The notes: a model not told the origin generated them from the sequence alone. A DNA stretch of 64,000 nt from Spirochaetia bacterium (GCA_965243545.1 OZ251573.1:2246093-2310092); one strand, 5' to 3'; positions 11,049-57,131 are shown, counted from the stretch's first letter. Numbers and translations: made by a program.

Positions 11049-11123
11049 CGTTCACGGTGGCGGAGCGGATTGAACGACCTGTGCGCAGACCGGGGAAGTC
11101 GACGAGTTGCTCCCGTCGGCGGC

Positions 11124-15122: not shown

Positions 15123-15216
15123 CGGACGCCCCAGTATAGCCCGGACCGGCGCTCCCGGCCGGCGCGCCCGGCCGGCATGGTAGGCTGGCGGCCATGAGCG
15201 GAGCGGAACCGCGCGC

Positions 15217-39455: not shown

Positions 39456-39885
39456 CCGGAGGTGTGGAAGTATGTGGTGTAGGGCAAGGTCGAGCGGTGC
39501 TCCGAGCATGACAGGCCCGCAGTTGCTTGTTCCGCCTTGGCGCCGCGCGGTGATTGCGCGTTTGTGCTGCTCGGAGAGACACATCACCGCGAGCTCTGCC
39601 CGACTGCTTGCCGGCGCGGCTTCGGCTGCTGCGCGGCTGCTTGGTGGCGCGGCTGCCCGGAACGCTGCGGGGGCTGGAACGGCCGTCGAGTCTGAGAAGG
39701 CCGTCGACGGGACGCGCACCGGTTGAGCGGCGCATACATACGGCGCAACCGCATCCCGACTGCGGGCGGGCACTGACCGCGCCACCAGCCGGGACGGCCC
39801 GCGGTAGACAATCCGGCCGGACGCCCGTACCATGACGCGAACGCGCTCCAAACCTGGGAGCAGATCGAAACACGGGGGGACTGTC

Positions 39886-40890
39886 ATGGCGCGGAGCGAC
39901 CTCCTCGTTTCGCTGGTGAAGGCCGGATCAAGCGGTGACGCAACGCGCGCCCGCTCCGTCACGGAAGCGATCATCGCTGAGGAACGTGCAAAACGTCACA
40001 ACGTGCTCGCTGAACGCCTGACGGAGGCGATGCGCATGAATGGCGCCGGGCCCGCGACGGCGAAATTCGCAGGGCACGGCCAGCGGCACCGGGAGTTTCT
40101 TCTTGAGTTGACCCCACGCCGTCGGATTGAGGACCTGATCCTCTCCGATCTGGCGCGGCGGGCGTGCGGCGAGTTGATCGAGGAGCAGCACCGGGCCGCG
40201 TTGCTGCGGGCGCATTCGCTTGAACCGCGGCACCGTGTCCCGCTGGTGGGACCTCCCGGCAACGGCAAGACGTCCCTGGCCGAGGCCATCGCGGAGGCGC
40301 TGGCGGTGCCGTTCTTCGTGGTGCGCTACGAAGCGATGATCGGCAGCTTCCTCGGCGAAACCGCCACCCGCCTGAAGCGAGTCTTCGACTACGCCCGAAC
40401 AACCCCGTGCGTACTGTTCTTCGACGAGTTCGACGCGGTAGGCAAGGAGCGTGGCGACGTTCACGAGACCGGCGAGATCAAACGGGTAGTTACGTCGTTG
40501 CTGATGCAGGTGGACGATCTGCCAAGCTACACCGTGGTCGTGGCGGCCACCAACCACGCCGAGCTGCTCGACCGGGCTGCGTGGCGCCGGTTCCAGGTGC
40601 GCCTTTTGCTCAACCCCCCGACGCGGCGAGATCTGACCGCCTATCTTGCGCGGTTCGCCGCCACTCTCGATGAACCGCTCGGCCGGACGCCCGACACGAT
40701 CGCCAAGACGCTTGGCGCGATCAGCTACGCGGAGGCTGAGGAGTTCTGTCGCGACGTGCGGCGCCGCAACACCCTCGCTCTAGGCGAGCAGCCGCTCGAG
40801 ACCATCGTTGCGGACCGATTGAAACTCTGGGCCGAGCGGTCGCGGGCATCCGTACGCGAGGAGAAAGCGGATGGCGGCGCAACATCGTAG
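39886..40890 (+). CDS. classic-clade AAA+ ATPase
   Basis: Walker A LVGPPGNGKTSLA. Walker B VLFFDEFDAVG. Sensor-1 VVAATNH. Arg-finger region DRAAWRRF. ATG 39886 is preceded by GGGGGGA. Confidence 0.8.
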   Translation: MARSDLLVSLVKAGSSGDATRARSVTEAIIAEERAKRHNVLAERLTEAMRMNGAGPATAKFAGHGQRHREFLLELTPRRRIEDLILSDLARRACGELIEEQHRAALLRAHSLEPRHRVPLVGPPGNGKTSLAEAIAEALAVPFFVVRYEAMIGSFLGETATRLKRVFDYARTTPCVLFFDEFDAVGKERGDVHETGEIKRVVTSLLMQVDDLPSYTVVVAATNHAELLDRAAWRRFQVRLLLNPPTRRDLTAYLARFAATLDEPLGRTPDTIAKTLGAISYAEAEEFCRDVRRRNTLALGEQPLETIVADRLKLWAERSRASVREEKADGGATS

Positions 40891-40900
40891 GAGCGCGGAG

Positions 40901-41191
40901 ATGGCGCCGCTTACCTATCTTGACACCGATGAGCAGGAGCTCATCGAGAGCATCGAGCAGGCGCCTCATCTCGGCGGGCGGCTCGATCCGGTGGAGGAAA
41001 GCAGGTTCCGGGAGCTGCTCAAGGGCGCCGCGCGCAGGAGACCCAAGGACACGGAGATCACCATGCGGATTTCTGCCGATGATCTGTTGGCCATCAAGGC
41101 GCTTGCCCGCCGGCTCGGCGTCGAGTATCAGCCGCTGATCGCGGAGGTGGTACACCAATATGCGCGGGGTCTGCTCAAGCGTTCCGGCTGA
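40901..41191 (+). CDS. CopG/BrnA-like ribbon-helix-helix antitoxin-family protein
   Basis: TEITMRISADDLLAIKALARRLGVEYQPLIAEVVHQYARGLL matches the K..i.iRl...dl..lK..A...G.pYQ.Li pattern. It is a paralogue of 43603..43911. Start chosen at ATG 40901. Confidence 0.55.
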   Translation: MAPLTYLDTDEQELIESIEQAPHLGGRLDPVEESRFRELLKGAARRRPKDTEITMRISADDLLAIKALARRLGVEYQPLIAEVVHQYARGLLKRSG

Positions 41192-42499: not shown

Positions 42500-43375
42500 A
42501 TGGCGACGCCGCAGCCGGTCAGAGCGCGCATCCGGGACCTGCGGCGGGAGTACGAGGCGTTGCGCGGCGGCAAGGAGTCGCTGCTGACCATGATCGACGA
42601 CGCGGAGATACCGGAGGGCGTGTACAACTCGAACGCCATCGAGAACTCGACCCTCACGCTCGACGAAACCGAACGTATCCTGCTGCAGCAGACGCTGTCC
42701 CGCAACGTCACCGTGCGGGAGGTCTTCGAGGCCCGGAATCTGGCGCGGGTGGTCGAGTACAGCCGCGCCAAGGCGGCCGCCGGCGAGCTGACGCGAGACC
42801 TGATCGTCCTGTTGCACCGGATGCTGATCGGCGGCATCGACGACGACATCGCCGGCCGGTTCCGCCGCACCGGAGAATACGTGCGCGTCGGCGCTCACGT
42901 CGCCCCGGCGCCCGAGCGGGTGGAGCCGATGATGGCTGCCGCGCTACGGGACTACGCCAGCGACCTCGACGCCTACTTCCTGGACCGGATCGCCCTGTTC
43001 CACCTGCGTTTCGAGACCATCCATCCGTTCTGCGACGGCAACGGCCGCATGGGCCGCGTCATCGTCAACTTCCATCTCTCCCGGATCGGGCTGCCGCCGA
43101 TCATCATCCGCGACAAGGAGAAAGACCGCTACTACCAGGCGTTCCGGGACTACCTGGACCGAAGCCGCAGCCAGACGATGGAACGCATCCTGGCGCTGGC
43201 GCTGCTGGAGTCGATGCACAAGCGCCTCGCTTACCTCAGGGGAGACTCCGTCGTCAGGTTGTCGGAGTACATCCGGCGGCGCGGCCTGTCGGCGCCGAGC
43301 GTGACCAACGCCGCGCGGCGCCAGACCATCCCGGCGTTCCGGGAGAAGGGGGTGTGGAAGATTGGCGATGAGTGA
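42500..43375 (+). CDS. Fic family protein (AMPylase-type)
   Basis: Canonical Fic motif HPFCDGNGRMGR. An N-terminal SNAIENSTLTLDET helix region is present. Confidence 0.85.
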   Translation: MATPQPVRARIRDLRREYEALRGGKESLLTMIDDAEIPEGVYNSNAIENSTLTLDETERILLQQTLSRNVTVREVFEARNLARVVEYSRAKAAAGELTRDLIVLLHRMLIGGIDDDIAGRFRRTGEYVRVGAHVAPAPERVEPMMAAALRDYASDLDAYFLDRIALFHLRFETIHPFCDGNGRMGRVIVNFHLSRIGLPPIIIRDKEKDRYYQAFRDYLDRSRSQTMERILALALLESMHKRLAYLRGDSVVRLSEYIRRRGLSAPSVTNAARRQTIPAFREKGVWKIGDE

Positions 43376-43602: not shown

Positions 43603-43911
43603 ATGACGAGAGAAGGACGCATGGCTGGGATCGGAATGACGCTGACCGAAGATGAGCAGGACATACTCGATTCAGTCGAACGAGGCGAGTGGAAGACTAT
43701 TCCCGATTTCGAGCAGGAAGCCGAGCGCTACCGCTTGGCCGCCCAAGCCACGCTACAGAAAAACAAGCGCGTCAACATTAGGATGTCGGAGCGCGACCTG
43801 AACCGGTTTCGGAAGGCAGCCCTACGCCAGGGGCTGCCGTATCAGACCCTCATTTCCAGCGTCCTGCACAAGTACATCAACGGGCGCATGGTCGACAAAG
43901 AAGCCACCTGA
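43603..43911 (+). CDS. CopG/BrnA-like ribbon-helix-helix antitoxin-family protein
   Basis: KNKRVNIRMSERDLNRFRKAALRQGLPYQTLISSVLHKYINGRM. It is a paralogue of 40901..41191. The real start is possibly the internal ATG at 43621 or 43636. Confidence 0.55.
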   Translation: MTREGRMAGIGMTLTEDEQDILDSVERGEWKTIPDFEQEAERYRLAAQATLQKNKRVNIRMSERDLNRFRKAALRQGLPYQTLISSVLHKYINGRMVDKEAT

Positions 43912-43918: not shown

Positions 43919-46900
43919 ATGCCACCAGAGACAAAGCGCCGCGAGCTCGATAAATCCGTGGGCTCGATGACGTATCCGGCGGTGCGGAAGAACATTCCGC
44001 CGGCGGGGCTGGCGGCGCAGGGGGAGGTGCGCGAGAAGAGGGCGGGCGGTATGAGTACAATCCGCATCTGCCGCCGGCTTTGCGGTCGGCGCCGGACGCG
44101 GCGGCGGCGGACCGGCTGCCGGCGTTGCTGGAGACCGCCCGGCACCGGGCGCTCACGGAGGATGAAGCCGCGGCGCTGGCGGAGGCGTTGCGGCGGCATG
44201 AGCCGTGGCTGGAGTGGACGGGCAAGCGCGAGCGGCCGTGGTTCGAGGTCGATCCGGTGGCGCTGCACATGCACGAGCGGGTCTCCACGCAGGCGATCCT
44301 GCGGGTGCTCGCGCGCGGCGACGTGCAGCGCGATCTGTTCGCCGATCCGCAGCTCGATTACGCGCGGGCGGTGCAGTTCTACCGCCACGACATCGACTGG
44401 ACCAACCGCATGATCCTGGGCGACTCGCTGCAGGTGATGGCCAGCCTGGCCCACCGCGAGGACCTTGCCGGCAAGGTGCAGATGATCTACGTGGACCCGC
44501 CCTACGGGATCAAGTTCGCCTCCAACTTTCAGCCGCAGCTCGGCCAGCGCGACGTCAAGGACCGGCAGCAGGACCTGACCCGCGAGCCGGAGATGGTCAA
44601 GGCGTACCGCGACACCTGGACGCTCGGGGTCCACTCCTACCTCGCCTATCTGCGCGACCGACTGACGATGGCGCGCGAGCTGCTCAGCGACACCGGCAGC
44701 ATCTTTGTGCAGATCAGCGACGAGAATCTGCACCGCGTCCGTTTGCTCATGGACGAGGTGTTCGGCGTCAGCAAATTCGTGGTGACCATCAAGTTCTCCA
44801 AGAACGTCGGGGCTGGGCGGCCGGTTTCTGGACGAGACGTTCGATCATCTCATCTGGTTCGCCAGGGACATCGAACGGATCAGGTTTCGCCGGCCGTTTA
44901 TGGAGCGCGTCAGCGGTGAATCGGGGGCGACGCAGTACCGTTATTCGATGCGGCCCGACGGCTGGTTCAGCGAGTCCGACGACGAATCGGAAGGAAGGCG
45001 GTTTGCGCATGACAACCTTACGTCGCAGACGGGTAACGAGTCGACCGTGTTTCCGTTCGAGATCGACGGCTGGCCGATTTCCGCGCCGCGCAAGGGCGGC
45101 TGGAAATCCAACGCCGAAGGCATCCAGCGGCTGAAGCAGGCGCACCGCATCATTCGGGTCGGCAACACGCCGCGCTACGTACGGTACTTCGACGACGCGC
45201 CGAGCTTCCCGGTCGGATCTGGCTGGACGGACACCGGTATCAGCGGCTTCGGCGCGGAGAAAGAGTACGTCGTCCAAACCCATCCGCTGGTCGTGCAGCG
45301 CTGCATGTTGATGACGACCGATCCGGGCGACCTGGTGCTTGATCCGACCTGCGGGAGCGGCACCACGGCGTTCGTGGCCGAGCAGTGGGGGCGGCGGTGG
45401 ATCACGATCGACACCAGCCGGGTGGCGCTGACGCTGGCCAAGCATAGGCTGTTGACCGCCCGCTTCGACTACTACCGGCTGCGCGCACTGAGCGCCGAGG
45501 ACGTGGCGCGCAACCCGAACGGAACGTGGATCGAAGGAGCGGACGGCAACGGCGGGCCGAACGGCGAGCGGCTCACCCTCGACTGCCGCACCGTCCCGCA
45601 TATCACGCTCAAGAGCATCGCCCGCAACACCGCGCTCGATCCGATCTTCGCCCGCCACGAACCGATACTGGCCACGGCGCTCGCGGCGCTGAACCGGCAA
45701 CTCGTCACCATCACCCCGGAACAGAAACAAAAACTCGTTGAAAAGCTGATCGCCAAGCACCGCCGCGACGGCTCCAACGCCGTCACCAACGCGGACGTGC
45801 GGCGCTGGCTGCTGCCGGACACCTCGCCTGATCTGATCGTTCCGGTCGGCGCGCGCCGGCCGCTCAAGGCGGTCACCGCCCGGCAGGCCGCCAAGTACCG
45901 CGACCAGATTCCCGCCGGCGAATGGCGCGAGTGGGAGGCGCCGTTCGACGCCGACCCGGATTGGCCGCAGCCGCTGCAGGAAGCGCTGGCCGCCTACCGC
46001 GCCGCGTGGCGGGCGAAGATGGATGAGGTCAACGCCTGCATCGCCGCCAACGCCGAGACCGAGGAGCTGGTCGACAAGCCGGCCATCGTCAAGAACACCG
46101 TCCGCGTCGCCGGGCCGTTCACGATGGAAGGGGTGATCGCGCTCGAAGAAGGGCCGGGCACGCCGATCGGCGGCGCGCCGGAGGAGTTGGATAACTTCGG
46201 CGCCGAAGACGGGGCCGCCGCGGTCGCCAACGCCGAGGCGCACCTCGACAAGATGATCCGCCTGCTCAAGGCCAGCGGCGTGCAGTTTCCCGCCAACAAG
46301 AAGCAGCGCTTCGAGCGGCTCGACCCGGTCACCGGCGCCGCCCTGATCCACGCCGAAGGCGAGTGGCGCAACGGCGCCGGGGACGCGCGCCGGGTGGCCG
46401 TCAGCATCGGCCCGGAGGCCGGCAACGTGACGGCGTGGCAGGTCGAGGAGGTGGTGCGCGACGCCAACCGCGCCGGCTACGACGACGTGGTGTTCGCCGG
46501 CTTCGGCTTCGACGCCGCGGCGCAGGCCGCCATCGAACACTCCGCGCACCGCAACCTGCGCCTGCACATGGCGTTGATCAGCCCGGACGCGGCCCTCGAC
46601 GACCTGCTCAAGACGCAGCCCGGCAGCCAGATATTCACCGTATTCTCGGCCCCGCGCGTGGCCGGCCCCACCCGCCGGGAGGACGGCGACTACGTGGTCG
46701 AGGTGGAGGGGATGGACGTGTACGATCCGGTATCCAACACGCTCGCGCCCACCGACGCGGCGGGCATCGCCGCCTGGTTCCTGGACACCGACTACGACGG
46801 GCGCACCTTCTGCATCTGCCAGGCGTTCTTCCCCGACAAGAGCAAGTGGAGCCGGCTGGCGCGGGCGCTCGGCCGCACCGGGTTGGTGGAGGAGGCGGCG

Positions 46901-47047
46901 TTCGACGACCTGAGCGGCCTGCGCAGCCTGCCGTTCGCGCCACCGCCGGACCGCCGCCTGGGCGAGCCGTGGCGCATCGCCGTCAAGGTGATCGACCCAC
47001 GCGGCAACGAGGGCCTGCGCGTCCTCACCGTGGAGGAGCCGGCATGA
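43919..47047 (+). pseudogene. mod: Type III-like N6-adenine DNA methyltransferase (Mod), tandem copy 1, two frameshifts
   Basis: The reading frame is split over track ORFs 43919.., 44080..44919 and 44900..47047. Motifs are IYVDPPYGIKF (DPPY) and LDPTCGSGTTAFVA (AdoMet). Relative to copy 2 there is a 1-nt deletion near 44046 (GGGCGG-GCGG) and a 1-nt insertion near 44805 (AAGAACG vs AAGACG). Confidence 0.8.
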
Positions 47048-47074
47048 TCGACCGCATCGTCATCAAGAACTTCA
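43943..47074 (+). repeat. tandem ~3.1-kb repeat unit, copy 1 (mod plus first 31 nt of the ATPase gene)
   Basis: Collinear with 48874-51955 (offset 4930-4932). Its last kb is also collinear with copy 3. Antisense track ORFs 45175..45441 and 50105..50371 translate identically. Confidence 0.9.
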
Positions 47075-47136
47075 CGATACCGCGGGGTGCATCGACAACT
47101 TGCAGCCGAAGTGATACATTGCGCCAGGAGGACGAC

Positions 47137-47964
47137 ATGGCAATCACCGTCGAAGACTTCCACGATCTTGTGCAACTGCTTGAAGATCGCCCGCAATGGC
47201 GGGCCGAGATGCGCCGCCTGGTGATGGGCGAGGAATACTTGGCAGTGCCGGAGCAGATCGCCGACCTACAGCGCCAAACTGCCGACCTACAGCGCCAAAC
47301 TGCCGACCTACAGCGCCAAACTGCCGAGCTACGGCGCCAAACTGCCGAGCTACAGCGCCAAACTGCCGAGCTACAGCGCCAAACCGCCGAGCTACGGCGC
47401 GAGACCGCGGAATTGGGCCACAAATTGGAGCAGCTGCGGCTCGACATGGAACGCCGCTTTGGCCACGTCCAGGTGCAGCTCGATCAACTAACGACCGATG
47501 TGGGGCAACTTAAGACCGACGTCGGGCAGCTCAAGGGAGAGAACCTGGAGCGCCGCTACCGGGAGAGGGCTCACGCCTATTTCGGCCGGCTGATCAGCAA
47601 GGGCCGCGTCGTCGGGTCGGAGCAACTGTCCGACCTTCTGGAGGAGGCCGTCCACGGGGGAGTTTTGACGCAGCGCGACCGGGACGAAGTGGGGTGGGCC
47701 GATCTGGTCATGCGCGGCAGGTGGATTGCCGACGGGAGGCAGGTCATGGTGCTCGCGGAGATCTCCTCACTGGTCGACCTTAACGACGTCCGGCGGGCCG
47801 TAGGCCGGGCGGCGCTGCTAGCCACGCTCGGCACACCCGTCGTGCCCGTAGTAGCGGGGGAGTCTGTGACCGAGCGCGCCGCCGACATGGCGCGGAGCCA
47901 CAACGTATGGCAGATGCTCAACGGCCGCATCATCGAACCACCCAACGCCCCGACCATTTCCTGA
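47137..47964 (+). CDS. coiled-coil protein with heptad repeats and a C-terminal PD-(D/E)XK-like domain (uncharacterised family)
   Basis: ATG 47137 is preceded by AGGAGG. ADLQRQT/AELQRQT heptads are followed by ...WADLVMRGRW...VMVLAEISSLVDLNDVRRAVGRAALL. It is a paralogue of 60346..60966. It is also in frame with the ATPase-gene stub starting at 47044. Confidence 0.5.
   Translation: MAITVEDFHDLVQLLEDRPQWRAEMRRLVMGEEYLAVPEQIADLQRQTADLQRQTADLQRQTAELRRQTAELQRQTAELQRQTAELRRETAELGHKLEQLRLDMERRFGHVQVQLDQLTTDVGQLKTDVGQLKGENLERRYRERAHAYFGRLISKGRVVGSEQLSDLLEEAVHGGVLTQRDRDEVGWADLVMRGRWIADGRQVMVLAEISSLVDLNDVRRAVGRAALLATLGTPVVPVVAGESVTERAADMARSHNVWQMLNGRIIEPPNAPTIS
47260..47406 (+). repeat. seven tandem 21-bp units inside the CDS (heptad repeat A-D/E-L-Q/R-R-Q/E-T)
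   Basis: GCCGACCTACAGCGCCAAACT occurs three times, followed by four GCCGAGCTAC(A/G)GCGC(C/G)A(A/G)AC(T/C) variants. Unit boundaries are at 47260, 47281, 47302, 47323, 47344, 47365 and 47386. Confidence 0.9.
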
Positions 47965-48059
47965 CCGATCGTCGTGCCACGGCGGGGGGCGTTGACCGCG
48001 AGCGGCAACGTGCTGAAAACGGATGGCAGCCATGGCCGAATGCGGGAGGTAGTAACCAA

Positions 48060-48476
48060 ATGAAGGTTTTCGTCAGCTGGTCTGGAGAGCGCAGCAGGAA
48101 GATCGGTGAGCAGTTGCGAGAATGGCTCCCCACTGTCATTCAATCCATCGATCCCTACTTTACTCCTGAAGACACAGAAAAGGGAACGCGATGGCTTTCC
48201 GAAATATCTCAAGAACTGTCCGCTTCCGAGGTTGGGATATTTTGTGTCACACAAGACAACATAGACAGTAGTTGGCTTCTCTTCGAAGCCGGTGTCTTAT
48301 CCAACAAGCTAGATAAATTCTGCGTCTGCCCGATACTATTTGCGGTGAACGCTGTCGATTTGGCTGCCCCGATGAGACAATTTCAGGCCACCGAGTTCAC
48401 GAGAGAAGACTTCAAAAGACTAGTCGAGGTCATAAATGGACGTATATCAAATGGACATGGAAAGACCGGCGTCTGA
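48060..48476 (+). CDS. short stand-alone TIR-like domain protein
   Basis: MKVFVSWSGERSRKIGEQLREWL...VGIFCVTQDNIDSSWLLFEAGVLS is a bacterial TIR-like pattern with a conserved Glu in FEAG. GGGAGG lies upstream of ATG 48060. The segment is AT-rich. Confidence 0.65.
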   Translation: MKVFVSWSGERSRKIGEQLREWLPTVIQSIDPYFTPEDTEKGTRWLSEISQELSASEVGIFCVTQDNIDSSWLLFEAGVLSNKLDKFCVCPILFAVNAVDLAAPMRQFQATEFTREDFKRLVEVINGRISNGHGKTGV

Positions 48477-48825
48477 TCAACCGAAACGGGCAGATAGAGA
48501 GCTCTTGGAAGAGATACACCAAGCGACGAGCTTCATGCTCGGCACGCGTACCGTTTTACCGTCGCCGTTGGTAGCGTCGATAGTTGAACGATTCATCGAT
48601 CTCCATGACGATCAAGCTATGAGTAAGGGAGGCTATCAAGAAGTTCTTGACAGCCTGCGAACTATGCGAGCGGACATTGTTCAGATAATTCATATAATTC
48701 ATTATGGAGAAGTAACAGGTCGCATGCGTCCGTTAATGAAGAGGTTTGAGCGTCTGTCGTATCAGGTTAGACCCGTGCTATCCAAGCAGTCGCCAGAAGA
48801 ATCCGAAGATGATATACCATTCTAA
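48436..48825 (+). CDS. small hypothetical protein downstream of the TIR gene
   Basis: 129-aa ORF overlapping the TIR gene 3' end, with alternative starts at 48451 and 48457. It has the same AT-rich composition and no recognisable motif. Confidence 0.35.
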   Translation: MDVYQMDMERPASDQPKRADRELLEEIHQATSFMLGTRTVLPSPLVASIVERFIDLHDDQAMSKGGYQEVLDSLRTMRADIVQIIHIIHYGEVTGRMRPLMKRFERLSYQVRPVLSKQSPEESEDDIPF

Positions 48826-48852
48826 ATGCTCGTTTAGGAGACTTGTTCGGGA

Positions 48853-51800
48853 ATGACACGAAGAAAACACATTGAGCTCGATAATTCCGTGGGGTCGATG
48901 ACGTATCCGGCGGTGCGGAAGAACATTCCGCCGGCGGGGCTGGCGGCGCAGGGGGAGGTGCGCGAGAAGAGGGCGGTGCGGTATGAGTACAATCCGCATC
49001 TGCCGCCGGCGTTGCGGTCGGCGCCGGACGCGGCGGCGGTGGACCGGCTGCCGGCGTTGCTGGAGGCCGCCCGGCACCGGGCGCTCACCGAGGATGAGGC
49101 AGCGGCGCTGGCGGAGGCGTTGCGGCGGCATGAGCCGTGGCTGGAGTGGACGGGCAAGCGCGAGCGGCCGTGGTTCAAGTCGATCCGGTGGCGCTGCACA
49201 TGCACGAGCGGGTCTCCACGCAGGCGATCCTGCGCGTGCTCGCGCGCGGCGACGTGCAGCGCGATCTGTTCGCCGATCCGCAACTTGATTACGCGCGGGC
49301 GGTGCAGTTCTACCGCCACGACATCGACTGGACCAACCGCATGATCCTGGGCGACTCGCTGCAGGTGATGGCCAGCCTGGCGCACCGCGAGGACTTGGCC
49401 GGCAAGGTGCAGATGATCTACCTGGACCCGCCCTACGGGATCAAGTTTGCCTCCAACTTCCAGCCGCAGCTCGGCCAACGCGACGTCAAGGACCGGCAGC
49501 AGGACCTGACCCGCGAGCCGGAGATGGTCAAGGCGTACCGCGACACCTGGACGCTCGGCGTCCACTCCTACCTCGCCTATTTGCGCGACCGATTGACGAT
49601 GGCCCGCGAGCTGCTCAGCGACACCGGCAGCATCTTCGTGCAGATCAGCGACGAGAATCTGCACCGCGTCCGCTTGCTCATGGACGAAGTGTTCGGCGTC
49701 AGCAACTTCGTGGTGACCATCAAGTTCTCCAAGACGTCGGGGCTGGGCGGCCGGTTTCTGGACGAGACGTTCGATCATCTCATCTGGTTCGCCAGGGACA
49801 TCGAACGGATCAGGTTTCGCCGGCCGTTTATGGAGCGCGTCAGCGGTGAATCGGGGGCGACGCAGTACCGTTATTCGATGCGGCCCGACGGCTGGTTCAG
49901 CGAGTCCGACGACGAATCGGAAGGAAGGCGGTTTGCGCATGACAACCTTACGTCGCAGACGGGTAACGAGTCGACCGTGTTTCCGTTCGAGATCGACGGC
50001 TGGCCGATTTCCGCGCCGCGCAAGGGCGGCTGGAAATCCAACGCCGAAGGCATCGAGCGGCTGAAGCAGGCGCACCGCATCATTCGGGTCGGCAACACGC
50101 CGCGCTACGTGCGGTACTTCGACGACGCGCCGAGCTTCCCGGTCGGATCTGGCTGGACGGACACCGGTATCAGCGGCTTCGGCGCGGAGAAAGAGTACGT
50201 CGTCCAGACCCATCCGCTGGTCGTGCAGCGCTGCATGTTGATGACGACCGATCCGGGCGACCTGGTGCTCGATCCGACCTGCGGGAGCGGCACCACGGCG
50301 TTCGTGGCCGAGCAGTGGGGGCGGCGGTGGATCACGATCGACACCAGCCGGGTGGCGCTGACGCTGGCCAAGCATCGGCTGTTGACCGCGCGCTTCGACT
50401 ACTACCGGTTGCGCGCACTGAGCGCCGAGGACGTGGCGCGCAACCCGAACGGAACCTGGATCGAAGGAACCGACGGCAACGGCGGCCCGAACGGCAAGCG
50501 GCTCACTCTCGACTGCCGCACCGTGCCGCATATCACGCTCAAGAGCATCGCCCGCAACACCGCGCTCGATCCGATCTTCGCCCGCCACGAACCGATACTG
50601 GCCGCGGCGCTCGCCGCGCTGAACCGCCACCTCGTCACCATCACCCCGGAACAGAAACAAAAACTCGTCGAAAAACTGATCGCCAAGCACCGCCGCGACG
50701 GCGCCAACGCCGTCACCAGCGCGGACGTGCGGCGCTGGCTGCTGCCGGACACGCCGCCCGACCTGATCGTTCCCGTCGGCGCGCGCCGGCCGCTCAAGGC
50801 GGTCACCGCCCGGCAGGCCGCCAAGTACCGCGACCAGATTCCCGCCGGCGAATGGCGCGAATGGGAAGCGCCGTTCGACGCCGACCCGGACTGGCCGCAG
50901 CCGCTCCGCGAAGCGCTGGCCGCCTACCGCGCCGCGTGGCGGGCGAAGATGGATGAGGTCAACGCCTGCATCGCCGCCAACGCCGAGACCGAGGAGCTGG
51001 TCGACAAGCCGGCCATCGTCAAGGGCACGGTCCGCGTCGCCGGGCCGTTCACGATGGAAGGGGTGATCGCGCTCGAAGAGGGGCCGGACACGCCGATCGG
51101 CGGCGCGCCGGAGGAGTTGGATAACTTCGGCGCCGAAGACGGGGCCGCCGCGGTCGCCAACGCCGAGGCGCACCTGGACAAGATGATCCGCCTGCTCAAG
51201 GCGAGCGGCGTACAGTTTCCGGCCAACAAGAAGCAGCGCTTCGAGCGGCTCGACCCGGTCACCGGCGCGGCCCTGATCCACGCCGAGGGCGAGTGGCGCA
51301 ACGGCGCCGGGGACGCGCGCCGGGTGGCCGTCAGCATCGGCCCGGAGGCCGGCAACGTGACCGCGTGGCAGGTCGAGGAGGTGGTGCGCGACGCCAACCG
51401 CGCCGGCTACGACGACGTCGTGTTCGCCGGCTTCGGCTTCGACGCCGCGGCGCAGGCCGCCATCGAACATTCCGCGCACCGCAACCTGCGCCTGCACATG
51501 GCGTTGATCAGCCCGGACGCGGCGCTCGACGACCTGCTCAAGACGCAGCCCGGCAGCCAGATATTCACCGTGTTCTCGGCCCCGCGCGTGGCCGGCCCCA
51601 CCCGCCGGGAGGAGGGCGATTACGTGGTCGAGGTGGAGGGGATGGACGTCTACGATCCGGTAACCAACACGCTCGCGCCCACCGACGCGGCGGGCATCGC
51701 CGCCTGGTTCCTGGATACCGACTACGACGGGCGCACGTTCTGCATCTGCCAGGCGTTCTTCCCCGACAAGAGCAAGTGGAGCCGGCTGGCGCGGGCGCTC

Positions 51801-51983
51801 GGGCGCACCGGGCTGGTGGAAGAGGCGGCGTTCGACGACCTGAGCGGCCTGCGCAGCCTGCCGTTCGCGCCGCCGCCCGACCGCCGGCGGGGCGAGCCGT
51901 GGGGCATCGCCGTCAAGGTGATCGACCCGCGCGGCAACGAGGGCCTGCGCGTCCTGGCCGCGGAGGATGGCACGGGCAGTTGA
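48853..51983 (+). pseudogene. mod: Type III-like DNA methyltransferase (Mod), tandem copy 2, one frameshift
   Basis: Split between track ORFs 48853..49344 and 49137..51983. TTCAAGTCGAT near 49172 replaces TTCGAGGTCGAT of copies 1 and 3 (a 1-nt loss). DPPY and DPTCGSGTT motifs are present. The C-terminal tail is unique (LAAEDGTGS*). Confidence 0.8.
48874..51955 (+). repeat. tandem ~3.1-kb repeat unit, copy 2
   Basis: Collinear with copy 1 throughout. Collinear with copy 3 outside the central variable segment. Antisense ORFs 50924..51397 and 54839..55312 translate identically. Confidence 0.9.
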
Positions 51984-52122
51984 CGAGCCACCGCGCGGCC
52001 ATTACGTTGACGTACCGTGCTACACATCTCAGTCGCCGTATCAAGACCATGGAGCAAAGAGTCGATAGAGGACGGCAATCCAGTAGCCTGAATCGGACCG
52101 GTTCGACACGGAGGGAGGACGA

Positions 52123-52704
52123 GTGATGGAACATGCGGTGGTCGCTCTGACGACAACGGTCGGGGTGACATTTCTGTTCGTGATCTATTTCCTGTGGCGC
52201 CGACTGCGTCTGGACATATTCCGAGATCATCTGTTTCGTCTGCGGGAAAGGTGGTTCGATCTTGCTCTCGATCCCGATTCGACGCTACAGTTCGATAACC
52301 CGCTGTATCGATCCGTCGAGCAGTCGTTGTGCGGTATGCTACAATTTGCCCACCGGGTGTCGTTCTCATTCGTAGTACTGGTAAGGATCGGAGAGCGCAT
52401 CCAGAATATCGAGACAGACGTAGAGCCCATTGAGCGGATCGCGAAAAACGTCAAGCGGATACCTGATGAATACACCCGCACGAGAGCCGTTGAAATATGG
52501 ACCGGTATTCCCGTGGCGATACTCAAACACATGATGTTCACGTCACTGGTATTCCTTTTGTTGACCTCTATCCAGTTTGTATTGTTGTTGTTACGCGAAC
52601 GACCTACACGGGCGGCAAAGGAGGGGCTTGTTAAGCAGAACGAGCCGGTACTCGAGAAGATAGAGACAACCGCATATCGGAATCTCGCGTCTGAACCGGT
52701 TTAG
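52123..52704 (+). CDS. hypothetical 2-TM membrane protein
   Basis: Hydrophobic helices VVALTTTVGVTFLFVIYFLW and MMFTSLVFLLLTSIQFVLLLL flank a ~130-aa soluble region. GGAGGGAGG lies upstream; ATG 52126 is an alternative to GTG 52123. The segment is AT-rich. Confidence 0.5.
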   Translation: MMEHAVVALTTTVGVTFLFVIYFLWRRLRLDIFRDHLFRLRERWFDLALDPDSTLQFDNPLYRSVEQSLCGMLQFAHRVSFSFVVLVRIGERIQNIETDVEPIERIAKNVKRIPDEYTRTRAVEIWTGIPVAILKHMMFTSLVFLLLTSIQFVLLLLRERPTRAAKEGLVKQNEPVLEKIETTAYRNLASEPV

Positions 52705-52730
52705 CGTGACCGGAAGACCGGAGAATCGGG

Positions 52731-55700
52731 ATGTCGCGTAGAGACGCCGCGGCGACCGGCGGCCGCGCGGCGGACGGCGTCGCGTCGATTACGTATCCGG
52801 CGGTGCGGAAGAACATTCCGCCGGCGGGGCTGGCGGCGCAGGGGGAGGTGCGCGAGAAGAGGGCGGTGCGGTATGAGTACAATCCGCATCTGCCGCCGGC
52901 GTTGCGGTCGGCGCCGGACGCGGCGGCGGCGGACCGGCTTCCGGCGTTGCTGGAGGCCGCCCGGCACCGGGCGCTCACCGAGGATGAGGCCGCGGCGCTG
53001 GCGGAGGCGTTGCGGCGGCATGAGCCGTGGCTGGAGTGGACGGGCAAGCGCGAGCGGCCGTGGTTCGAGGTCGATCCGGTGGCGTTGCACATGCACGAGC
53101 GGGTCTCCACGCAGGCGATCTTGCGCGTGCTCGCGCGACAGGACGTGCAGCGCGATCTGTTCGCCGATCCGCAGCTCGATTACGCGCGTGCGGTGCAGTT
53201 CTACCGCCACGACATCGACTGGACCAACCGCATGATCCTGGGCGACTCGCTGCAGGTGATGGCCAGCCTGGCCCACCGCGAGGACCTTGCCGGCAAGGTG
53301 CAGATGATCTACGTGGACCCGCCCTACGGGATCAAGTTCGCCTCCAACTTTCAGCCGCAGCTCGGCCAGCGCGACGTCAAGGACCGGCAGCAGGACCTGA
53401 CCCGCGAGCCGGAGATGGTCAAGGCGTACCGCGACACCTGGACGCTCGGCGTCCACTCCTACCTCGCCTATTTGCGCGACCGATTGACGATGGCGCGCGA
53501 GCTGCTCAGCGACACCGGCAGCATCTTCGTGCAGATCAATGACAGGAATCTTCATCTTGTCCGCTCTGTTATGGATGAAGTGTTCGGAGCAGATAACTTC
53601 ATCACCATCGTAGCCTTCAAGAAGACAAGCGGATTGGGCACTTTTGGCGTCTCAAGCGTGCTGGATTTTCTGATTTGGTATGGCAAGGACCGGAACCAGA
53701 CAAAGAAAAGGGAGCTACTCGACGACAAGAATCTCAGCACCTCGGGACGATTCTACGATCATGTGCTGTTCCCAAACGGAGAGTTGAGGCGGTACTCGGC
53801 GTCTGAGATAGAGAATATAGAAGAGAGACAGGGAGCGCTATTGCAGGGGAGCGTTCTTTACTCTGAGGGTGCTACCGAGACAGGAAGATTCGAGCTTCCA
53901 GTGGGGTCATCCAAATATCGCCCACCTGCCAATGCACACTGGAAGACAGATCAGGATGGGATGAATCGTCTACTGGCTGCCGAGCGCATCTTTATGAAAG
54001 GAAACACGCCCCGTTACGTTCGGTTTCTCGACGACTATCGGAGCTTCCCGTTCACCAACGCCTGGACGGACACCGGATTCGGAGGGTTCGTCGGCGATCA
54101 ATCAAAGAGCTACGTGGTTCAGACCTCGTCACAGGTTGTCGAACGATGCATGGTGATGACGACCGACCCTGGCGACTTGGTGCTTGATCCGACCTGCGGG
54201 AGCGGCACCACGGCGTTCGTGGCCGAGCAGTGGGGGCGGCGGTGGATCACGATCGACACCAGCCGGGTGGCGCTGACGCTGGCCAAGCATCGGCTATTGA
54301 CCGCCCGCTTCGACTACTACCGGTTGCGCGCACTGAGCGCCGAGGACGTGGCGCGCAACCCGAACGGAACCTGGATCGAAGGAACCGACGGCAACGGCGG
54401 CCCGAACGGCAAGCGGCTCACTCTCGACTGCCGCACCGTGCCGCATATCACGCTCAAGAGCATCGCCCGCAACACCGCGCTCGATCCGATCTTCGCCCGC
54501 CACGAACCGATACTGGCCGCGGCGCTCGCCGCGCTGAACCGCCACCTCGTCACCATCACCCCGGAACAGAAACAAAAACTCGTCGAAAAACTGATCGCCA
54601 AGCACCGCCGCGACGGCGCCAACGCCGTCACCAGCGCGGACGTGCGGCGCTGGCTGCTGCCGGACACCTCGCCTGATCTGATCGTTCCGGTCGGCGCGCG
54701 CCGGCCGCTCAAGGCGGTCACCGCCCGGCAGGCCGCCAAGTACCGCGACCAGATTCCCGCCGGCGAATGGCGCGAGTGGGAGGCGCCGTTCGACGCCGAC
54801 CCGGACTGGCCGCAGCCGCTCCGCGAAGCGCTGGCCGCCTACCGCGCCGCGTGGCGGGCGAAGATGGATGAGGTCAACGCCTGCATCGCCGCCAACGCCG
54901 AGACCGAGGAGCTGGTCGACAAGCCGGCCATCGTCAAGGGCACGGTCCGCGTCGCCGGGCCGTTCACGATGGAAGGGGTGATCGCGCTCGAAGAGGGGCC
55001 GGACACGCCGATCGGCGGCGCGCCGGAGGAGTTGGATAACTTCGGCGCCGAAGACGGGGCCGCCGCGGTCGCCAACGCCGAGGCGCACCTGGACAAGATG
55101 ATCCGCCTGCTCAAGGCGAGCGGCGTACAGTTTCCGGCCAACAAGAAGCAGCGCTTCGAGCGGCTCGACCCGGTCACCGGCGCGGCCCTGATCCACGCCG
55201 AGGGCGAGTGGCGCAACGGCGCCGGGGACGCGCGCCGGGTGGCCGTCAGCATCGGCCCGGAGGCCGGCAACGTGACCGCGTGGCAGGTCGAGGAGGTGGT
55301 GCGCGACGCCAACCGCGCCGGCTACGACGACGTCGTGTTCGCCGGCTTCGGCTTCGACGCCGCGGCGCAGGCCGCCATCGAACATTCCGCGCACCGCAAC
55401 CTGCGCCTGCACATGGCGTTGATCAGCCCGGACGCGGCGCTCGACGACCTGCTCAAGACGCAGCCCGGCAGCCAGATATTCACCGTGTTCTCGGCCCCGC
55501 GCGTGGCCGGCCCCACCCGCCGGGAGGAGGGCGATTACGTGGTCGAGGTGGAGGGGATGGACGTCTACGATCCGGTAACCAACACGCTCGCGCCCACCGA
55601 CGCGGCGGGCATCGCCGCCTGGTTCCTGGATACCGACTACGACGGGCGCACGTTCTGCATCTGCCAGGCGTTCTTCCCCGACAAGAGCAAGTGGAGCCGG

Positions 55701-55892
55701 CTGGCGCGGGCGCTCGGCCGCACCGGGCTGGTGGAGGAGGCGGCGTTCGACGACCTGAGCGGCCTGCGCAGCCTGCCGTTCGCGCCGCCGCCCGATCGCC
55801 GCCGGGGCGAACCGTGGCGCATCGCCGTCAAGGTGATCGACCCGCGCGGCAACGAGGGCCTGCGCGTCCTCACCGTGGAGGCGCCGGCATGA
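52731..55892 (+). CDS. mod: Type III-like N6-adenine DNA methyltransferase (Mod), tandem copy 3, intact, alternative central recognition segment
   Basis: Uninterrupted 1053-aa ORF with IYVDPPYGIKF and LDPTCGSGTTAFVA. The central ~630 nt (about 53538-54165) is divergent and AT-richer than in copies 1 and 2. Confidence 0.85.
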   Translation: MSRRDAAATGGRAADGVASITYPAVRKNIPPAGLAAQGEVREKRAVRYEYNPHLPPALRSAPDAAAADRLPALLEAARHRALTEDEAAALAEALRRHEPWLEWTGKRERPWFEVDPVALHMHERVSTQAILRVLARQDVQRDLFADPQLDYARAVQFYRHDIDWTNRMILGDSLQVMASLAHREDLAGKVQMIYVDPPYGIKFASNFQPQLGQRDVKDRQQDLTREPEMVKAYRDTWTLGVHSYLAYLRDRLTMARELLSDTGSIFVQINDRNLHLVRSVMDEVFGADNFITIVAFKKTSGLGTFGVSSVLDFLIWYGKDRNQTKKRELLDDKNLSTSGRFYDHVLFPNGELRRYSASEIENIEERQGALLQGSVLYSEGATETGRFELPVGSSKYRPPANAHWKTDQDGMNRLLAAERIFMKGNTPRYVRFLDDYRSFPFTNAWTDTGFGGFVGDQSKSYVVQTSSQVVERCMVMTTDPGDLVLDPTCGSGTTAFVAEQWGRRWITIDTSRVALTLAKHRLLTARFDYYRLRALSAEDVARNPNGTWIEGTDGNGGPNGKRLTLDCRTVPHITLKSIARNTALDPIFARHEPILAAALAALNRHLVTITPEQKQKLVEKLIAKHRRDGANAVTSADVRRWLLPDTSPDLIVPVGARRPLKAVTARQAAKYRDQIPAGEWREWEAPFDADPDWPQPLREALAAYRAAWRAKMDEVNACIAANAETEELVDKPAIVKGTVRVAGPFTMEGVIALEEGPDTPIGGAPEELDNFGAEDGAAAVANAEAHLDKMIRLLKASGVQFPANKKQRFERLDPVTGAALIHAEGEWRNGAGDARRVAVSIGPEAGNVTAWQVEEVVRDANRAGYDDVVFAGFGFDAAAQAAIEHSAHRNLRLHMALISPDAALDDLLKTQPGSQIFTVFSAPRVAGPTRREEGDYVVEVEGMDVYDPVTNTLAPTDAAGIAAWFLDTDYDGRTFCICQAFFPDKSKWSRLARALGRTGLVEEAAFDDLSGLRSLPFAPPPDRRRGEPWRIAVKVIDPRGNEGLRVLTVEAPA

Positions 55893-55919
55893 TCGACCGC
55901 ATCGTCATCAAGAACTTCA
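52785..55919 (+). repeat. tandem ~3.1-kb repeat unit, copy 3
   Basis: Near-identical to copy 2 on both sides of 53538-54165. The right end runs 31 nt into the ATPase gene, exactly as in copy 1. Confidence 0.9.
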
Positions 55920-57085
55920 AGAGCTTCCGCAACGTCGATCTCAAGTTGGGCCGTATGAACCTGTTTATCGGCACCAACGCCAGCGGCAAGTCCAACTTCC
56001 TCGAAGCGCTCCGCGTCCTGCAAGGAATCGGCAACGGCTTCACCATCGGCGAGATTCTCGACGGTAAACCCAAGAGCGCCATCACCCAGGCGTGGCCCGG
56101 TATCCGAGGAGGAAGCCGCTACGCCCTCTTCACCGGCGCCGAAGACGGTGACGAAGTGACGATCGAGATTTCTGGAACGCTGCCCGGGATCCCTGAGCGG
56201 AACTGGGAGTATCGTATCTCGTTCGCGCCGGCGCAAGCGGAACTGAGGGAGGAGGTATTTTCCGTAGGGTCCGAGTGGTACATGTACTTGGGTAGCTCCA
56301 AGTCAATATCGTGGTGCGGCGCGCGCGACGACAGGACGATGGAAGCACTGCTACGTTCACCGGCCGTCGTACCGTTTCTTGCGACGCAACGTCCATTTCG
56401 GGAGTGCCGCCATCTCAACGAGCGCATATTCGCGGTGCGGCGCATGCTGGCGAACACGCAGCGCGTCGACGTGTCACGTCGGATGCTGGAGGGGTATTCG
56501 GAAGCCCCGCAGGTAATAAGCCTCGGTGAACGTGGGGAAGACTTTGCGGGACTGGTTCGGGAGATCTGCAAGGACAAGAAGAAAAAGGATGCGTATCTGT
56601 CGTGGCTCCAGGAGCTTCTACCGGAGCAAGTGAGCGGCGTTGGAACGCTGAGCGGCGCCGTCGGCGATTGCTTGTTCATGCTGCGCGAAAACAGCGGTGA
56701 GTTTGCCGCACCGGCGCTCAGCGAAGGTACGCTGCGCTTTGCGGCGATGGCGGCCACGTTCTTTCAACCCGAGTCGCCCAACGCTATGATCATCGAGGAG
56801 ATAGAAAGCAGCATTCACCCAAGTGGCCTGCGCGTTCTGGTAGAGTTGGTGATGAAACTGGCCGAATCGGACGATACTCAAGTCTTCGCAACTACCTACT
56901 CTCCGACAGTGCTGGAGTGGCTGGACCACTACGATAACGGAAAGACCTTTTTCTGCCACCGTCACGAGGAGACCGGCGAATCGACGATCCGACCGCTAAC
57001 TGAGGTCCCGCACTTCAACGAGGTCGTGCAGAATTCCCGGATCGGCGATTTGCTCGTTGAAGGCTGGCTGGAAATGGCTCTATGA
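55889..57085 (+). CDS. AAA/ABC-type (RecF/SMC-like) ATPase between mod and res
   Basis: MIDRIVIKNFKSFRNVDLKLGRMNLFIGTNASGKSNFLEAL (Walker A). LSEGTLRF (signature-like). AMIIEEIESSIHP (Walker B). ATGA overlap with the mod stop. Confidence 0.7.
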   Translation: MIDRIVIKNFKSFRNVDLKLGRMNLFIGTNASGKSNFLEALRVLQGIGNGFTIGEILDGKPKSAITQAWPGIRGGSRYALFTGAEDGDEVTIEISGTLPGIPERNWEYRISFAPAQAELREEVFSVGSEWYMYLGSSKSISWCGARDDRTMEALLRSPAVVPFLATQRPFRECRHLNERIFAVRRMLANTQRVDVSRRMLEGYSEAPQVISLGERGEDFAGLVREICKDKKKKDAYLSWLQELLPEQVSGVGTLSGAVGDCLFMLRENSGEFAAPALSEGTLRFAAMAATFFQPESPNAMIIEEIESSIHPSGLRVLVELVMKLAESDDTQVFATTYSPTVLEWLDHYDNGKTFFCHRHEETGESTIRPLTEVPHFNEVVQNSRIGDLLVEGWLEMAL

Positions 57086-57131
57086 GCGCTTGCGACCGGA
57101 TCGCGGCGCACTTGGGGGAGGCATAGGGGCG

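Follow-up and report, generated by a model that had tools for sequence, protein, structure and literature searches.

A tandem array of three Type III-like mod genes in a Spirochaetia bacterium as a probable stack of alternative alleles of a variable restriction-modification locus

Three tandem copies of a Type III-like mod gene followed by a single res gene are found within a 64-kb window (the whole stretch of 64,000 nucleotides analysed here) of a Spirochaetia bacterium. According to our analysis, this array probably consists of alternative alleles that circulate in the population and have been stacked within a variable Type III-like restriction-modification locus. In Type III systems a Mod2Res complex acts on an asymmetric site, which is hemimethylated, and ATP-dependent cleavage requires two inversely oriented sites.

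Results

The mod copies, termed c1, c2 and c3 in the following, are direct repeats of ~3.1 kb located at 43943-47074, 48874-51967 and 52764-55919, as delimited by self-BLAST and MAFFT. The three-copy array put forward in the original prediction is thus real, with the correction that c2 ends at 51967 and not at 51955. The genes of the array and its surroundings are as follows.

42500-43375: Fic gene, upstream of the CopG gene (Pfam Fic 1.4e-19)
43603-43911, + strand: CopG/BrnA-antitoxin-like gene, 102 aa (Pfam CopG_antitoxin 1.9e-6)
43919-47047, + strand: mod copy 1 (c1), TRD-A, two frameshifts (alignment, GC3 frame plot)
47044-47074, + strand: remnant of the AAA_21 ATPase gene, first 31 nt, at the 3' edge of c1 (aligns to 55889-55919)
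47137-47964, + strand: cargo 1a, coiled-coil protein, 275 aa (Pfam/NCBIfam: weak coiled-coil-type matches only)
48060-48476, + strand: cargo 1b, TIR-domain protein, GC 0.48 (Pfam TIR_2 5.5e-8; PADLOC TIR-TM 2.8e-55)
48436-48825, + strand: cargo 1c, 129-aa ORF, GC 0.47 (ORF call)
48853-51983, + strand: mod copy 2 (c2), TRD-A, one frameshift (alignment, GC3 frame plot)
52123-52704, + strand: cargo 2 (TM193), predicted membrane protein, 193 aa, GC 0.52
52731-55892, + strand: mod copy 3 (c3), intact, 1,053 aa, TRD-B (Pfam N6_N4_Mtase, PF01555, 8.3e-28; PADLOC MTase_III 1.5e-162)
55889-57085, + strand: AAA_21/AAA_15 ATPase, 398 aa, between mod and res (Pfam AAA_21 3.2e-25; PADLOC PDC-M07A 3.5e-50)
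57057-60392, + strand: Res, 1,111 aa (NCBIfam NF046055; Pfam ResIII; PADLOC REase_III)

Hereby, c1 (43943-47037) and c2 (48874-51967) are 96.9% identical over 3,096 nt, and c3 shares 95-96% identity with both in the 5' ~800 nt and 94.7-96.4% in the 3' ~1.9 kb. Repeat identity of such length and level cannot have arisen by chance. The homology between c1 and c3 extends to 47074 and 55919, respectively, i.e. 31 nt into the ATPase gene starting at 55889, in agreement with the claim that c1 keeps the first 31 nt of that gene. No further mod fragments are present elsewhere within the 64-kb window. With three mods, two types of target-recognition domain and one res, the locus is a multi-mod, single-res cluster.

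The copies had been described as near-identical over most of their length, which holds for the 5' and 3' parts. Mapping of the identity breakpoints by aligning the copies delimits a divergent central block of ~500 nt (c3 ~53590-54100 versus c1 ~44770-45260), in which c3 is only ~40% identical to c1 and c2 on the nucleotide level. This block falls between the DPPY motif (residue 196 of c3) and the DPTCGSG motif (residue 486), with the variable part spanning residues ~286-456, and represents the target-recognition domain (TRD). On the amino acid level the TRD of c3 is ~34% identical to that of c1 and c2, whereas the remaining protein (backbone) is 96-98% identical. Two TRD types are present in the array, TRD-A in c1 and c2 (99% aa identical) and TRD-B in c3, the latter with a low GC content of 0.53. 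In c3 the DPPY motif precedes the AdoMet-binding FxGxG motif with the TRD in between, which, together with the Pfam PF01555 match, corresponds to a beta-class N6A/N4C methyltransferase; the PDB matches of c3 are the Mod subunits 6k0w and 4zcf (EcoP15I).

Profile searches support the identities that had been assigned to the mod (Type III-like), ATPase and res genes. The Res protein shows an N-terminal SF2 helicase (motifs GSGKT at 226, DEGH at 353 and SAT at 402) and a C-terminal PD-(D/E)XK-like nuclease motif at residues ~1010-1026 (D1010...E1024-x-K1026), with mod and then res on the + strand, as is characteristic of Type III Res. It scores 900.3 bits against NF046055 ("BPTD_3080 family restriction endonuclease"), above the curated equivalog cut-off of 800, and is hence a member of this family. 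The start of the ATPase gene overlaps the stop codon of c3 (ATGA), and most loci of the BPTD_3080-type family are without this ATPase. Every mod copy starts at a separate ATG with ~10-20 distinct N-terminal codons and lies closely behind the preceding gene: the CopG gene ends 7 nt before the start codon of c1, cargo 1c 27 nt before that of c2 and TM193 26 nt before that of c3. As regards the cargo, cargo 1a contains a 21-nt tandem repeat (6.7 units, 47260-47400) encoding heptads. The PADLOC TIR-TM match of cargo 1b is restricted to the TIR part of the model, and an upstream ATG at 47907 represents an alternative start of this gene. For cargo 1c no Pfam, PADLOC or NCBIfam match was found. More distant TM193 homologues are located in different islands, where mobile elements and toxin-antitoxin genes abound. 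A scan for promoters and terminators was uninformative: 4 promoter-like sites were returned versus 1.8 expected, and the single + strand terminator-like site falls just within the 5' end of TM193, leaving none between the copies. The window contains neither tRNA genes nor Rfam matches, hence no tRNA-linked integration site was found.

Related strains carry alleles that correspond to the individual copies. In L169, the locus is arranged as mod[TRD-B]-ATPase-Res and is 98.6% identical on the nucleotide level to window positions 52778-60284 (~7.5 kb); across the TRD it matches c3 at 100% identity, and the two ATPases do not differ in amino acid sequence (100% identical). In L170 and L171 there is only one mod, which carries TRD-A and, as in c1, an ATPase-linked 3' end; these loci correspond to L002 minus TM193 and one mod. 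L002 itself is arranged as modA[TRD-A]-TM193-modB[TRD-C]-ATPase-Res with both mods intact, and is 97.85% identical to window positions 48888-53591. Here, modA (9938-13105) represents an intact orthologue of c2, identical to it over the 5' 700 aligned columns apart from the indel described below, and TM193, located between the two intact mods, is 100% aa identical. L163 (mod-TM193-Res-...-M16 peptidase) is syntenic with the window and carries TM193 between mod and Res. In L162, the CopG gene of the window recurs (98% aa) and is followed by a deleted mod remnant of the c1/c2 type, TM193 and a mod, in this order, while cargo 1 is absent. Given that the three copies match three alleles circulating separately in relatives, the array is best read as an allele stack.

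This correspondence could, however, also be mimicked by a chimeric merge of strains, since each copy resembles a different strain allele and one related sample indeed holds several coexisting strains with differing alleles of the mod locus. Nevertheless, it is extremely improbable that the triplication was created by the assembly, be it through repeat expansion or through the joining of coexisting strains in one contig. Divergence between the copies amounts to 3-5%, and each is bordered by unique junctions at either end. The independent 113x assembly L002 shows the same c2-TM193-c3 junctions, and the CopG-mod and mod-TM193-mod junctions are present in L162, which stems from a different sample and, to judge from its scaffold-style contig name, was presumably assembled by another method.

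The allele stack also bears on the proposed origin of the array by duplication of a mod-ATPase(-res) unit followed by deletion. The retained 31-nt ATPase start and the mod[TRD-A]-ATPase alleles of L170 and L171 support the view that c1 descends from a mod that was once followed by the ATPase gene, and this part of the proposal stands. A simple tandem duplication, however, is too simple an account of copies that match three separate alleles. Unequal crossing-over between sister copies was likewise rejected as origin of the array, as it would duplicate the same cargo, yet cargo 1 and cargo 2 are unrelated. The accompanying suggestion that recombination between the repeats excises the cargo is consistent with L170/L171 and L162, but either may instead show the ancestral state; single-mod alleles may be ancestral or may have arisen by deletion.

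The three single-nucleotide indels predicted near 44046, 44805 and 49172 were confirmed. In c1 a T is missing at 44045/46 and an extra A is found at 44803/04, and in c2 a G is missing at 49176/77. The reading frame switches exactly at these three positions in c1 and c2 and nowhere in c3 (GC3 frame plot), which leaves c3, directly coupled to ATPase and res, as the sole intact mod, as had been predicted. No indel is shared between copies or with any of the 8 other homologous sequences aligned. The sequence contexts are GG[T]GC, TC[G]AA and AAG[A]AC, none within a homopolymer of at least 3 or a repeat tract. Private substitutions are mostly synonymous in both frameshifted copies (50 synonymous versus 23 non-synonymous in c1; 21 versus 8 in c2), without a single stop codon. 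From an internal GTG at 49137, c2 could encode a 948-aa product with the entire methylase domain, and thus possibly an N-terminally truncated methylase.

The upstream copies were either inactivated recently or carry mis-called indels. In the latter case the frameshifts would be sequencing or assembly errors, and the locus a working multi-Mod, single-Res system with TRD-A twice and TRD-B once, similar to L002. The intact c2 orthologue in L002 and the mainly synonymous substitutions in c1 and c2 fit this explanation, as does the nature of the lesions, each of which is a single-base indel within a near-identical repeat, a setting prone to read mis-mapping and polishing errors. We nonetheless consider it unlikely. 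The indels all fall outside homopolymers of at least 3, and the upstream copy in L162 has truly decayed by large deletions. Moreover, no frame break was noticed in other long ORFs of the window (including those of 2,077, 1,364, 1,111 and 964 aa), by inspection and not by a systematic test, so that a generally error-prone assembly is unlikely.

As had been proposed, the mod copies evidently exchange sequence by gene conversion. This conclusion is drawn from the blocky arrangement of the 150 variable sites outside the TRD, which show 45 pattern switches (0 of 10,000 permutations had as few), and from a run of 935 nt that is identical between c2 and c3. In the 5' region, orthologues are closest to each other (c2-L2A 99.9%, c3-L2B 98.9%), whereas in alignment columns 2200-3000 the paralogues are closest, with c2 and c3 100% identical and L2A-L2B at 97.9%, versus 96.5% across genomes. 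Over-polishing could in principle account for the 100% identical c2/c3 tract.

Gene conversion of this kind could be taken as a sign that c1 and c2 are maintained silent cassettes, from which the recognition segment is moved into c3 as in pilin antigenic variation or hsdS shufflons. The conversion tracts link all three copies, c1 with c3 included, sequence of 95-100% identity borders the TRD on either side, and mosaic alleles exist in the population, such as L169 with L2A-like flanks and TRD-B. Several observations, however, make such a reservoir, the second reading offered in the original prediction, very unlikely. Both broken copies hold the same TRD, so that only one alternative is stored, i.e. 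a reservoir without diversity. The c2 orthologue is intact in L002 and hence evidently not silent by design, every copy has its own start closely behind a preceding gene, and the private substitutions are mostly synonymous. The tandem-mod arrangement is also rare, with 1 further case among 160 family loci. Phase variation by simple-sequence repeats ("phasevarion") was rejected: Tandem Repeats Finder detects no such tract in any mod copy, and the indels lie outside repeat tracts. A recombinase- or invertase-driven shufflon of the hsdS type was rejected as well: all copies are direct repeats on one strand, inverted repeats were not noticed, and scanning of the ORFs surrounding the array revealed no recombinase domain. 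A single transposase, an ISL3 element, is found at 7128-8156, 36 kb from the array.

Across the family, Res is paired with a Mod of ~1,050 aa in 142 of the 160 loci fetched, each with flanks of 10 kb. In ~37% of these 142 mod-res loci, 0.5-6.5 kb separate mod and res, and the inserts found across the family include AAA_21, AAA_14-DUF4143, RhuM, NYN, Zeta toxin, DUF6602 and Fic. This suggests that in this widespread family the mod-res or mod-mod gap is repeatedly occupied by accessory defence genes, with a defence role that is inferred from domains only. Two intact tandem mods were found in only one independent assembly (L002) among the 160 loci surveyed. The only other two-mod locus, L060, was rejected as a probable fold-back assembly artefact: it is a near-perfect palindrome to the centre, with arms of 2,532 nt that are 100% identical and then decay. 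A scan of metagenome contigs with the c3 product returned no relative above 68% and is informative for the family-wide architecture only. Exact-sequence searches with the c3 product, TM193 and the c2 ORF matched no record.

Discussion

The allele stack suggests the following course of events. Incoming alleles would have recombined into the resident locus via the shared mod and res backbone, adding to rather than replacing it, and the genes downstream of each mod (coiled-coil, TIR, 129-aa and TM193) would have been trapped between the copies as cargo. A Mod dimer is expected to read and methylate its motif via the TRD, while Res would join Mod and cut unmethylated DNA, and each intact mod may add one specificity to the single Res. 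Since restriction at a motif vanishes together with its methylation, loss of a mod would be harmless, so the upstream TRD-A copies could have been knocked out recently by single-base frameshifts. The system in this genome would now work with TRD-B only. Homologous recombination between the copies may remove cargo, fuse copies, correct frameshifts or transfer TRDs. Such exchange would be of the ordinary RecA-type and not a programmed switch.

A more far-reaching proposal sees portable homology arms in the near-identical mod (and res) backbones. By homologous recombination these would capture any incoming allele of the family beside the resident one and thereby stack TRDs and defence genes, and subsequent exchange among the copies, by recombination or gene conversion, would remove cargo, correct frameshifts or return a stored TRD to the single Res. 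We regard this as speculative and rather improbable. If it were true, the locus would be a self-organising capture site for defence genes and a slow specificity switch that needs no dedicated recombinase.

Several known systems resemble the array. In Mycoplasma, tandem mod paralogues with different recognition domains share one res, individual mods are switched off by frameshifts, and loci with one res and three mods are already known (bioRxiv 10.64898/2026.05.01.722158; 10.64898/2026.04.01.715767). The likeness comprises several tandem mods per single res, a res-nearest mod that overlaps or abuts res, and frameshifted mods. The Mycoplasma Mods, however, are ~70% identical and are switched by (AG)n repeats, whereas here the backbones are 96-98% identical, evidently as a result of gene conversion, without any repeat tract. 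Furthermore, the indels here lie at unique sites, one TRD is common to two copies, unrelated defence-type genes are found between the copies, and the Mod of ~1,050 aa has a long C-terminal extension.

In Helicobacter pylori, homologous recombination via conserved flanks carries TRDs from one Type III mod gene to another, and the histories of TRD and backbone are in conflict (Furuta and Kobayashi 2012, PMC3467074). The mosaic formed by L169, c3 and L2A shows the same pattern of TRD movement. In H. pylori, however, the exchanging mods reside at separate chromosomal loci with their own res each, whereas the array is tandem, with one res and whole alleles stacked. In Haemophilus influenzae and Neisseria, a hypervariable central mod region is combined with a conserved res, and the TRD is exchanged among strains (PMC1557822), which resembles the occurrence of TRD-A, TRD-B and TRD-C in closely related strains here. 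Unlike the present locus, those systems have one mod per locus, turned ON or OFF by repeat tracts, and no tandem stacking of alleles. Type I loci with duplicated hsdS genes, in which recombination switches specificity (PMC7394358), likewise contain extra, partly silent specificity genes with homologous flanks beside the expressed one. They differ in having inverted repeats, often a dedicated recombinase and shuffled half-TRDs, in contrast to the direct repeats, the lack of a recombinase in the region scanned and the same TRD in both broken copies found here.

Measured against these systems, the array represents an uncommon mode of variation for a defence locus, though one with precedents, and neither a new mechanism nor a new kind of system. 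The strain comparison shows diversification of restriction-modification in an uncultured, high-GC environmental bacterium, in which whole alleles with differing TRDs and embedded defence genes appear to be stacked, homogenised, broken and deleted by ordinary homologous recombination, and it extends the multi-mod, single-res architecture beyond Mycoplasma.

Results

Three direct copies of a Type III-like mod gene

The original prediction of a triplicated mod gene was borne out by repeat search, self-BLAST and MAFFT alignment, which place three ~3.1-kb direct repeats (c1, c2 and c3) in the following arrangement:

Genes of the mod array, all on the + strand
43943-47074, +, mod copy c1
between c1 and c2, +, cargo: coiled-coil protein, TIR-domain protein, 129-aa ORF
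48874-51967, +, mod copy c2
between c2 and c3, +, TM193, a predicted membrane protein of 193 aa
52764-55919, +, mod copy c3
52731-55892, +, c3 mod gene, 1,053 aa, beta-class N6/N4 DNA methyltransferase
between c3 mod and Res, +, AAA_21/AAA_15 ATPase, 398 aa
57057-60392, +, Res, 1,111 aa, SF2 helicase (GSGKT, DEGH, SAT) whose C-terminus bears a PD-(D/E)XK-like motif

Hereby, c1 and c2 are 96.9% identical across 3,096 nt. Copy c3 is 95-96% identical to both over the 5' ~800 nt and 94.7-96.4% over the 3' ~1.9 kb, while identity falls to just ~40% in the MAFFT alignment across a ~500-nt block in the middle (c3 ~53590-54100). Each copy starts from an ATG of its own and has about 10-20 unique N-terminal codons, and homology among the copies begins at the start of the conserved protein (...S-x-TYPAVRKNIPPAGL). 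The c3 product matches PF01555 (8.3e-28) and PADLOC MTase_III (1.5e-162), and among solved structures it is closest to two Mod subunits of Type III systems, 6k0w and 4zcf (EcoP15I). Its DPPY (residue 196) and DPTCGSG (residue 486) motifs flank the divergent block (residues ~286-456). The target-recognition domain (TRD) of Type III Mods sits in just this interval. We refer to the block as TRD-A in c1 and c2 and as TRD-B in c3. Res scores 900 bits with the NCBIfam equivalog model NF046055 ('BPTD_3080 family restriction endonuclease'), above the model's cut-off of 800.

All genes from Fic (42500) through Res (60392) lie on the + strand with short gaps, and a terminator scan found no terminator-like sites between the mod copies. 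GC content is 0.47-0.59 in the TIR gene, the 129-aa ORF, TM193, TRD-B and the ATPase, and 0.69-0.71 in the mod backbone and in Res. Within the cargo, the coiled-coil gene contains a 21-nt tandem repeat (47260-47400; 6.7 copies, 95% matches) encoding QRQTAEL-type heptads, and a weaker 21-nt repeat lies nearby (47485-47535); a change in repeat copy number would preserve the frame and alter coiled-coil length. The TIR ORF, which together with the 129-aa ORF occupies 48060-48825, aligns with positions 1-129 only of the 293-position PADLOC TIR-TM model and then ends. The 129-aa ORF overlaps it by 41 nt in a different frame and has no domain matches; the pair could represent a single gene that a frameshift has interrupted, or a TIR protein whose partner differs.

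The frameshifts and their age

The three predicted 1-nt indels are present: c1 lacks a T at 44045/46 and carries an additional A at 44803/04, and c2 lacks a G at 49176/77. In the GC3 frame plot the coding frame shifts at these three sites and is unchanged along c3. Likewise confirmed was the retention in c1 of 31 nt of the ATPase gene, c1/c3 homology extending that far. Substitutions private to c1 comprise 50 synonymous and 23 non-synonymous changes (third codon positions, 50/73), those private to c2 21 and 8, and no stop codon has arisen in either copy. Mostly synonymous change without stops indicates that c1 and c2 were functional genes up to a very recent point, or took over their sequence from functional copies.

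The near-identity of the repeats raises the alternative that the frameshifts are consensus errors specific to such repeats, which we consider unlikely. Each indel is confined to one copy and is missing from eight other aligned sequences, and none of the three lies in a homopolymer of at least 3 nt or a repeat tract. Moreover, inspection, though not a systematic test, revealed no frame break in the window's other long ORFs, which argues against a generally error-prone assembly.

Alleles in related strains

L002/L161 (OZ251575.1, 113x), a homologous locus in another assembly, is 97.85% identical to window 48888-53591 and has the order modA[TRD-A], TM193, modB[TRD-C], ATPase gene, 176-aa gene, Res. 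Both its mods are intact (modA, 1,055 aa; modB, 1,052 aa), and its TM193 is 100% identical to that of the window at the amino acid level. A single-mod strain co-existing in the same sample (L169) is 98.6% identical to window 52778-60284, with TRD-B matching c3 at 100%, the ATPase at 100% aa and Res at 99%. Two further loci from this sample (L170, L171) each have a single mod, composed of a modA-type 5' end, TRD-A and an ATPase-joined 3' end, which is exactly the structure of c1. L163 shares synteny with the window on the downstream side (M16 peptidase, 97% nt), and its genes run from a c2-type mod 3' end through TM193 to Res. The order in L162 is a 110-nt mod 5' remnant, CopG (98% aa to the window CopG), a second mod remnant (c1-type 5' junction, 388 internal nt, c2-type 3' end), then TM193 (99% aa), and last a mod crossing the contig end. 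Thus, the three window copies match three alleles circulating separately in close relatives, and mod copies and cargo appear to be gained and lost among strains.

TRD type is incongruent with backbone: TRD-B is 77% identical (aa) to the TRD of the homologous locus L001, and TRD-C is 61-67% identical to gammaproteobacterial TRDs, the backbones of which are ~71% identical.

Upstream of mod in L001, L002, L162 and L169-L171 we observed a conserved HATPase_c_3 (MORC-like) protein of ~800 aa, followed either by a 390-aa methyltransferase with an AbiJ_NTD4 or DUF3800 protein, or by an AAA_21 ATPase with a 197-aa protein. This region appears to be another variable slot of the same island.

Gene conversion among the copies

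At 150 variable non-TRD sites among c1, c2 and c3, the three possible site patterns are clustered in blocks, with 45 switches (as few in 0 of 10,000 permutations) and a longest run of 26 c2=c3 sites. Uninterrupted identity reaches 935 nt for c2/c3, 260 for c1/c3 and 171 for c1/c2. The 5' part is orthologous between the window and L002 (c2-modA 99.9%, c3-modB 98.9%). In alignment columns 2200-3000, by comparison, same-genome paralogues are closest (c2=c3 100%; modA-modB 97.9% vs 96.5-96.6% across genomes). The mod genes thus show concerted evolution, in which all three window copies take part.

Architecture in the family

Relatives of the long Mod are widespread, with 490 confirmed stretches in species-representative genomes and >589 stretches in metagenomes. 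Among 160 fetched mod-family loci, 142 have both mod and res; the two abut in 82 of these and are separated by 0.5-6.5 kb in ~53. Sampled inserts encode AAA_21 ATPases, AAA_14-DUF4143, RhuM, NYN, Zeta toxin, DUF6602 and Fic. Such frequent inserts identify the site downstream of mod as a recurrent accessory-gene slot, of which the window ATPase is one occupant. Tandem mods were found only in L002, setting aside L060, a mod-res locus of a Nitrospiraceae MAG (3368-16105). L060 was rejected as a second two-mod case since it is palindromic right up to its centre. Over 2.5 kb its two arms are perfect complements (100%), the match decaying toward the centre, with fragmented ORFs; a fold-back chimera formed in long-read assembly is the most likely explanation, and not a genuine inverted duplication.

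Elsewhere in the window

Further genes of the window
523-1710, -, MazG_C-domain protein
1695-2303, -, Nmad2 nucleotide-modification-associated protein
3618-4799, -, TIR-domain protein, 393 aa
7128-8156, -, ISL3 transposase
11124-15218, -, NERD/kinase fusion, 1,364 aa
32029-38262, +, 2,077-aa ORF in a low-GC (0.55-0.58) segment
38269-39369, +, 366-aa ORF downstream of it, no matches
40871-41191, CopG/BrnA-antitoxin-like gene after an AAA ATPase (39832-40890)
43603-43911, +, CopG/BrnA-antitoxin-like gene after the Fic gene (42500-43375)

The sole domain match of the 2,077-aa ORF is a weak AAA_16/ATPase_2 (STAND-like) hit at residues 1365-1499, with no NCBIfam match; lying beside the restriction-modification island, it looks like a large uncharacterised NTPase and is possibly a defence gene. 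The CopG/BrnA-like genes, 2.4 kb apart without detectable DNA-level similarity, may be antitoxin or regulator parts of separate island modules. A second low-GC defence-type cluster lies at 523-4799. The 1,364-aa protein is an unusual fusion, in which a nuclease-related NERD domain at the N-terminus is combined with two protein-kinase domains and a segment resembling the RNA polymerase alpha-CTD.

Discussion

The array is best read as a hypervariable defence locus in which alleles have become stacked. Hereby, a Type III-like system would have taken in further alleles by recombination within shared backbones, leaving the genes downstream of each mod trapped between copies; gene conversion homogenises the backbones, and both upstream TRD-A copies would have been inactivated just recently. 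Their loss may be tolerated because Type III restriction at a motif needs the same Mod that protects it, as established for EcoP15I-type enzymes. The same dependence has been discussed for phase-variable mods (bioRxiv 10.64898/2026.05.01.722158).

Of the two readings proposed originally, decaying duplicates largely holds, except that simple duplication is not upheld as the origin. From the second, a silent-cassette reservoir feeding the expressed copy, sequence exchange between copies is retained. A maintained silent-cassette system is unsupported because c1 and c2 hold one and the same TRD, L002 has an intact orthologue of c2, no recombinase was found among the ORFs scanned around the array and no simple-sequence repeat tract in any mod copy, and few loci of the family are built in this way.

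One-res, three-mod clusters occur in Mycoplasma bovis PG45 and M. pulmonis, where the Mods are ~70% identical and switched via (AG)n tracts (bioRxiv 10.64898/2026.05.01.722158; 10.64898/2026.04.01.715767). In H. pylori, TRDs move between mod genes via recombination in conserved flanks (PMC3467074), and in H. influenzae the central mod region is hypervariable and res conserved (PMC1557822). The present locus unites features of all three in a different Mod/Res family, and adds to them near-identical backbones, defence-type cargo between the copies and co-existing structural alleles.
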